Source: an uncultured archaeon
GTDB taxonomy: Archaea; Thermoproteota; Nitrososphaeria_A; Caldarchaeales; Wolframiiraptoraceae
Length of the DNA: 64,000 nucleotides
Assembly: GCA_938083505.1 (NCBI GenBank)
Contig: CALKCF010000002.1
Span: forward strand, 143,065-207,064
Reading direction: 5' to 3'
This document shows positions 17,678 through 19,722 of the stretch, in pieces; position 1 is the stretch's first letter; each line of letters begins with the position of its first letter. Below the pieces are notes generated by a model that made no database searches, was not told where the DNA came from, and was given only the letters and a program-made list of their open reading frames with translations. The translations under genes and the position numbers were made by a program.

Positions 17678-19201
<1,524 letters not shown>

Positions 19202-19549: not shown

Positions 19550-19644
19550 GGCCGCGGCTGGGATTCGAACCCAGGCAGCCGGCTCCACAGGCCGGAAGGC
19601 TAAACCGCTACCTCTGCGTCCACATTATAGTGGCCACCGCGGCC
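19550..19644 (-). tRNA. tRNA-His(GUG) with encoded G-1 and a 21-nt intron at 9/10
   Basis: G-GCCGCGG...CCGGC-CUGUGGA-GCCGG...UUCGAAU...CCGCGGC-C; the D-stem AGGU/GCCU is correctly spaced after removing 19614-19634. Confidence 0.9.
19614..19634 (-). other. BHB-like tRNA intron (position 9/10)
   Basis: CC-GCGG-UG^G-CCAC...GUGG-ACGC-AG^A-GG; central helix has one G.A mismatch. Confidence 0.8.
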
Positions 19645-19645
19645 A

Positions 19646-19654
19646 ACCGCGGCC
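19646..19654 (-). repeat. duplicate of the tRNA-His G-1/acceptor 5' strand in the leader
   Basis: accgcggcc at 19646-19654 is identical to 19636-19644. Confidence 0.85.
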
Positions 19655-19722
19655 GCTTATTCATTAGAACGAGCTTATCCTTAAGTGTTTCAGTCAGACT
19701 TAAAAAATTAAAGCATTGTAAT

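Follow-up and report, generated by a model that had tools for sequence, protein, structure and literature searches.

Non-canonical BHB introns are known from tRNA genes of Thermoproteales, Caldarchaeum and Asgard archaea (text of the review PMC4090602; PMC3293823; bioRxiv 10.64898/2026.10.13.758758). They are short, have two 3-nt bulges, a 4-nt central helix and flanking helices, occur in hosts with an (alpha-beta)2 endonuclease and are patchily gained and lost among close relatives. The intron of the tRNA-His gene considered here is like them in these respects, but its BHB consumes the 5′ strand of the acceptor and it comes with a copy of that strand in the leader. The positions named for non-canonical introns in the text of the review run from 20/21 to 59/60, with 3/4 as an extreme, and 9/10 is not among them (PMC4090602); position 9/10 is not claimed as new, the comparison being with that text. 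No description of a leader copy accompanying an early tRNA intron was found in the literature searched, the 2026 Asgard census included (bioRxiv 10.64898/2026.10.13.758758).

Trans-spliced split tRNAs, as in Nanoarchaeum equitans and Caldivirga maquilingensis (text of PMC4090602; PMC4033280), also have pairing of flanking non-exon sequence that makes the precursor spliceable and holds its pieces. There leader and trailer pair in trans and form the BHB, whereas the tRNA-His leader would pair in cis with a strand of an exon, outside the BHB, and its removal is predicted to be by RNase P instead of EndA. The locus is not itself a split tRNA, as both exons are contiguous. Permuted tRNA genes, as in Thermofilum pendens and Cyanidioschyzon merolae (PMC3218864, PMC4033280), share the need for splicing to precede end maturation. 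In tRNA-His the 3′ half is not upstream of the 5′ half; the gene is collinear, which disposes of permutation as an explanation, and unlike with permuted genes no circular tRNA intermediate is expected. With ordinary archaeal pre-tRNA leaders, those of Methanopyrus kandleri, the tRNA-His leader has in common a length of about 10-13 nt, a purine start and predicted removal by RNase P. The M. kandleri leaders, however, are trimmed off ahead of the intron, and no sequence-specific role is described for them (PMC3695527), while the tRNA-His leader copies the acceptor strand and would have to persist until splicing, the reverse order.

The tRNA-His gene and its intron

The window, the whole stretch of 64,000 nucleotides that was analysed, is from the 1.15-Mb, 98% complete genome of a hot-spring archaeon of Ca. 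Terraquivivens (Wolframiiraptoraceae, Caldarchaeales). Its minus strand has a tRNA-His(GUG) gene, with a stand-alone 16S gene about 350 nt downstream of it, and a genome-wide search found a single His(GUG) anticodon arm, at this locus. The 16S rRNA gene, on the same strand and just downstream, is at window 17678-19201; Rfam lists no 23S gene within the window.

Positions 10-73 of the tRNA are in the second exon (19550..19613), where the anticodon GTG is at 19588-19586 and C73 at 19550, with CCA not encoded. It matches Rfam RF00005 with 33.3 bits over model positions 9-63, and ARAGORN reports His(gtg) but places the 5′ end within the insert; an insert near position 9 accounts both for the limited Rfam match and for the miscall. 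The first exon (19635..19644) has G-1 at 19644 and positions 1-9 at 19643-19635, corresponds to the 5′ end of intronless orthologs and is complementary to 19557-19550. A GUG anticodon, U33, a purine at 37 and G-1 opposite C73 are all present, and the one further difference from intronless orthologs noted is an extra T in the D loop.

The 21 nt between the exons (19614..19634) contribute the 4-bp inner helix, the 3′ side of the central helix, including the conserved G7.A, and the 3′ bulge of a BHB at 9/10. Its outer helix has 3 bp (G1-U13, C2-G12, C3-G11), its central helix consists of G4-C, C5-G and G6-C plus G7.A, and the two bulges, U8 G9|G and A G|A10, are of 3 nt each with the cut after the second base. 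With three pairs out of four formed in the central helix, and G7.A present in all five species with the insert, the motif is not a strict hBHBh′ but a relaxed BHB that keeps both flanking helices (3 and 4-5 bp). As the relaxed class alone is weak evidence for an intron (bioRxiv 10.64898/2026.10.13.758758), the case for this one rests on orthologs. G7.A (the A is at window 19620) is invariant in all five introns while the intron loop varies, and so weakness of the central helix may be under selection.

The insert is found in five Terraquivivens genomes and is of 20-21 nt, with its helices kept and its loop variable. It is absent from one congener, T. tengchongensis (G004), and from more than 20 His genes of other genera of the family, all of which read G9 and then A10, and the predicted spliced product reads as they do. 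From this genome alone junctions at 8/9 and 9/10 yield an identical product; in G001, G005 and G006 the insert starts and ends with A, so that only 9/10 gives G9. These comparisons make it very nearly certain that the intron is at 9/10. The sequence-only reading, which had placed a 21-nt intron between the acceptor and D stems at 9/10 in a relaxed BHB with one G.A and had proposed comparison of orthologous His loci as a check, is borne out by the intronless genes, by the variants at the intron ends and by the pairs that form. A second intron of 10 nt, made by the tandem repeat described below, was considered and rejected after each register was checked by hand; the only BHB-like register, at 5/6, fails in G004 where it gives A1.C72.

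The leader copy and the proposed order of processing

The sequence GGCCGCGGT occurs twice on the minus strand, at 19654-19646 and at 19644-19636. Genome word counts put the chance of an exact copy of 8-9 nt within 42 nt at about 1-2 in 10,000. The upstream occurrence belongs to a leader segment (19645..19654) that repeats tRNA positions -1 to 8 and has one further U; ortholog comparison and models suggest for it a role as stand-in acceptor strand. Its target would be 19550..19561 on the same strand, comprising the 3′ strand of the acceptor together with C73 and the final bases of the T stem, with which it forms up to 12 bp, including one G.U, in minimum-energy folds.

Further upstream is a BRE and TATA-like promoter motif (19678..19691, minus strand, with the TATA part at 19685-19678), the best match to a motif trained on the regions upstream of Terraquivivens tRNA genes; within it CTTAAG, at 19685-19680, is conserved in the genus. 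The distance from motif end to +1 in ordinary tRNA genes of the genus has a mode of 25 nt. For tRNA-His of this genome, 34 nt separate the motif end from +1 and 23 nt separate it from the copy. A distance of 22-25 nt from motif to copy start holds, regardless of spacer length, for 23 of the 33 copy-bearing loci scored, the best-scoring motif being elsewhere in the others. Since the copy is at the distance where ordinary tRNA transcripts begin, it is very probably transcribed, with a start predicted at about 19656-19654, some 10-12 nt upstream of the tRNA. The sequence-only reading had noted the tandem double occurrence and the TATA-like CTTAAG near 19680, both of which are as described, and had expected the first copy to be inside the transcript, which the spacing, 23 nt against a mode of 25, favors.

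The BHB is built from positions 1-9, which are bases of the 8-bp all-G-C acceptor helix, and so the two folds are mutually exclusive. When the leader is left out of folding models, the true acceptor helix forms with a probability of 0.94-0.99 and the BHB central helix with one of about 0. When it is included, pairing of the copy with the 3′ strand reaches 0.97-1.0 at 60-70 °C, and about 0.99 for the copy at 19645..19654, while the true helix is left unformed. Forcing the BHB in this genome's precursor at 37 °C costs 14.0 kcal/mol without the leader and 7.5 with it, and across the five His genes the leader lowers the cost by 3-7 kcal/mol. What remains with the leader, 5-9 kcal/mol, compares with 7-9 for a canonical BHB, that of the Asp 68/69 intron considered below, which was the one scored for comparison. 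The advantage of native over other leaders is modest for His, where 0-5 of 24 natural control leaders do as well, and is likewise modest against shuffled leaders; native Cys leaders beat 24 of 24 natural controls. Shuffles of a 12-mer of G and C still pair, which makes the shuffled control weak, and natural leaders served as the second control. The models are without tertiary contacts, modifications or enzymes.

The favored interpretation, given a probability of about 0.8, is that the copy is a cis-acting stand-in acceptor strand permitting splicing before RNase P trimming, and it is with similar confidence that pairing with the 3′ acceptor strand is seen as the function for which the copy is selected. 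On this interpretation the BHB intron at 9/10 of an essential tRNA-His would be removed by the (alpha-beta)2 splicing endonuclease from a transcript that begins about 10-12 nt upstream with the copy of the acceptor 5′ strand. The copy would first pair with the 3′ acceptor strand and so free positions 1-9, after which the BHB could form and be cut. Until ligation the copy would tie the 10-nt first exon to the second and mask the true RNase P site. The true strand would then displace the copy, and RNase P would remove the leader at G-1. The intron and its junction, the copy with its conservation and co-occurrence, the promoter spacing and the presence of the enzymes can be read from sequence; the exclusion of one fold by the other and its relief by the copy are modelled, and transcription of the copy, the order of the steps, the tethering and the final displacement are what we infer. 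A model that ignores tertiary contacts favors the copy register after splicing by about 5.5 kcal/mol, and so a refolding step must be assumed.

The enzymes that this route would use are encoded. Two of its genes, coding for 189 and 192 aa, are of the EndA family; the catalytic protein aligns through the specific loop and has Lys at the K44 position of the best PDB match. It is through this loop that relaxed, non-canonical motifs can be cut (PMC5829648), and the host endonuclease is predicted from sequence to be of the (alpha-beta)2 type fit for such motifs. RNase P RNA is also encoded.

If the stand-in role is real, a pre-tRNA leader has a sequence-specific job, the persistence of introns in a part of tRNA that looked closed to them is explained, and a reversed processing order is to be expected in an essential gene. 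There is also potential relevance to how archaeal tRNA introns arrive, as survival at these positions should be limited to insertions that bring a duplicate strand with them or meet one there.

Somewhat unlikely, yet the best placed of the alternatives, is that selection acts on the copy mainly because it ties down the 10-nt exon after cutting, or keeps RNase P from cleaving too early, and not because it triggers BHB folding. Once cut, the first exon would have only 3 bp to hold it if the leader did not tie it. In one archaeon, M. kandleri, end trimming normally comes first (PMC3695527), and a trimmed precursor would lock the BHB, at a cost of 11-14 kcal/mol. The same pairing is needed either way, though, and the models show the BHB blocked when the copy does not pair. 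Also, the free first exon re-pairs strongly with the 3′ strand unaided in the model, and so tethering may be dispensable.

Copies beside early introns in other tRNA genes

A copy, defined as a match to at least 6 of the 7 bases of the acceptor 5′ strand, was sought in 286 T-arm-anchored tRNA genes from seven genomes of the genus. Eight were found, those of the five intron-bearing His genes, of one Glu gene with a 10/11 intron, of the G004 His gene and of the G006 Asp gene, whose intron is at 15/16. The T loop of tRNA-Cys begins UGC instead of UUC and T-arm patterns therefore miss the gene; it was left out of this census and added separately. In five genomes, including this one, where it is at G000:C4 ~95860-95965 (the loci also include L612-L615 and L619), tRNA-Cys has an 18-nt intron at 8/9 and a perfect copy. 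A broader search, of 76 genomes of the order and a sample of 401 from the phylum, provided 22 Glu/Asp genes with a 10/11 intron.

All 33 of the genes found with an intron at 5/6, 8/9, 9/10 or 10/11 (five His, five Cys, one Asp with a 5/6 intron and the 22 Glu/Asp genes with a 10/11 intron) have a leader copy by the above criterion, keeping in mind that they are related by descent and stand for at least four gains and not 33 independent events. Thirty copies are perfect; two have a C>T change that keeps U.G with the 3′ strand and one has a terminal mismatch, the three imperfect ones being among the Glu/Asp genes with a 10/11 intron, where 19 are perfect. Each copy matches the acceptor sequence of its own tRNA, and the spacer is from 2 to about 20 nt. 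By comparison, of 280 Terraquivivens tRNA genes that lack an early intron, 2 have the copy. Searches in which a copy was no condition, made in the 76 order genomes and, for Glu/Asp-type acceptors, in the 401 phylum genomes, found no early intron without one.

In two orthologs without the intron the copy is damaged. The intronless G004 His gene keeps both copies, the first having one G>A change that puts A at position 1, opposite C72, and the G001 tRNA-Cys, which lacks the intron, has a remnant with a 5/7 match. The G004 change cuts the post-splicing preference for the copy register to 0.2-1.1 kcal/mol in the models, as would suit a copy that helps where the intron is present and is a handicap where there is none. 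The sequence-only reading had offered the upstream copy as a stand-in for the acceptor strand; the co-occurrence (33/33 against 2/280), the damage in intronless orthologs, the position at the expected transcript start and the modelled switch in folding all speak for this.

It seems fairly probable that leader copies are a general archaeal solution, in cis, for introns that invade the acceptor: the stand-in strand in the leader would be required for splicing, would hold the cut exon and would put splicing before RNase P, and the arrangement would have arisen or been acquired at several positions (5/6, 8/9, 9/10 and 10/11) and in several tRNAs, to decay after intron loss. In practice genes with early introns are missed or mis-started by annotators, and the copy is a simple marker for finding them.

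Conservation bears on a second alternative, that the copy is a neutral by-product of an insertion event that duplicated the 5′ strand and has no role in splicing. The His copy is identical in the five intron-bearing species and absent from outgroup His leaders, while rpoB is invariant across these same five species at only 17% of its four-fold sites. The 20 nt upstream of it are themselves fairly conserved, however, with 14 of 20 columns (70%) invariant in four species; against this background 10/10 invariance in the copy has a probability of only about 0.03, and so His conservation alone is suggestive but not decisive. The G003 row of alignment A1, which was misplaced, is left out. The copy being at the ordinary distance of a tRNA 5′ end from the promoter is also as would be seen if a spacer, second strand and intron had been inserted behind the old 5′ end. 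Against neutrality, Glu genes of many families vary the spacer freely and keep the copy, two of the three copy variants still pair with the 3′ strand, and damage is seen where the intron is missing. An origin by duplication is compatible with later selection and may explain the source of the copy but not its retention, and a purely neutral copy is considered improbable.

More doubtful still is a hairpin between the copy and the true 5′ strand, with its palindromic CCGCGG core, acting for example as a co-transcriptional pause or regulator. The 5′ 52 nt in isolation do fold into a 7-bp hairpin, in which the G004 change turns a G.U into A-U, but its probability is about 0 in the modelled full precursor, no such palindrome exists in the Glu, Asp and Cys copies, and C>T in the Glu variants makes self-pairing weaker but leaves the pairing with the 3′ strand in place. 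The alternative that the sequence-only reading had itself raised, in which the first copy would be the real 5′ exon and the intron about 31 nt long, has in its favor the better pairing of the first copy with the 3′ strand in models and its usual tRNA start distance from the promoter, but is rejected as extremely improbable since it requires a 4-nt bulge and yields U9 or A9 against the G9 of all intronless orthologs, since both copies persist in intronless G004 with the first mispaired at position 1, and since most Glu copies are not followed by U8.

Gain, loss and other interrupted genes

As to the history of the His intron, rpoB trees nest G004 among intron-bearing species (95/93 for protein, 97/100 for DNA), which suggests that the His intron was precisely lost there. 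By AU tests on this single gene a basal position of G004 is not rejected (p-AU 0.106), nor is a Cys-intron group without G001 (p 0.25). As G004 has the Cys intron and G001 has the His intron, every tree requires at least one loss, short of two gains at the same site. A metagenome scan with a short GC-rich pattern gave one true His locus among the matches listed, and it is of the G004 type.

The Asp genes are diverse. That of G005 has a canonical BHB intron at 5/6 together with a perfect leader copy, and most of its orthologs have neither. In this gene (G005:C32; L219 / L304) both acceptor strands are interrupted, by the 18-nt 5/6 intron and by a 68/69 intron, and the copy is 15 nt upstream. 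The G006 tRNA-Asp (G006:C34; L237) has a 30-nt intron at 15/16, the 3′ end of which repeats exon positions 10-15, and an 8-nt leader copy 28 nt upstream; the 15/16 motif does not need the acceptor strand, and a 5/6 intron since lost may have left the copy behind. Copies were also seen before Leu and Glu genes that have no intron before position 15, among them a G031 Leu and a G295 Glu gene; these copies, at L572 (G031:C37), L573 (G012:C53) and L587 (G295:C11), are possibly relics or exceptions.

In the window itself tRNA-Asp(GUC), at 2621-2727 on the minus strand, has a 29-nt intron at 68/69 (2629-2657), inside the 3′ acceptor strand. Its BHB is canonical, with 2/4/3 pairs, and it is present in all seven Terraquivivens genomes and in none of the four outgroup Asp genes seen; in this genome no acceptor-strand copy was found beside it.

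The G006 tRNA-Glu(CUC) with a 10/11 intron and copy (L253, G006:C2:25664-25758) has an anticodon stem that is unlike that of its congeners and the same as that of G014 and G050, and lateral replacement of the whole gene is possible. The same tRNA-Lys(UUU) gene is at C1:10-107 and C3:221443-221540 of the genome under study, probably from assembly overlap of two contigs. In genus g6 a C/D-box-like sequence (ATGATGA, CTGA, ATGATCA, CTGA) is found upstream of tRNA-Leu(UAG) (L524, L525, L530, L531), ending about 22 nt before the tRNA, and the stretch before its last box is identical to the Leu acceptor 5′ strand; the apparent leader copies there directly precede the D-box-like CTGA of this sequence and were left uncounted.
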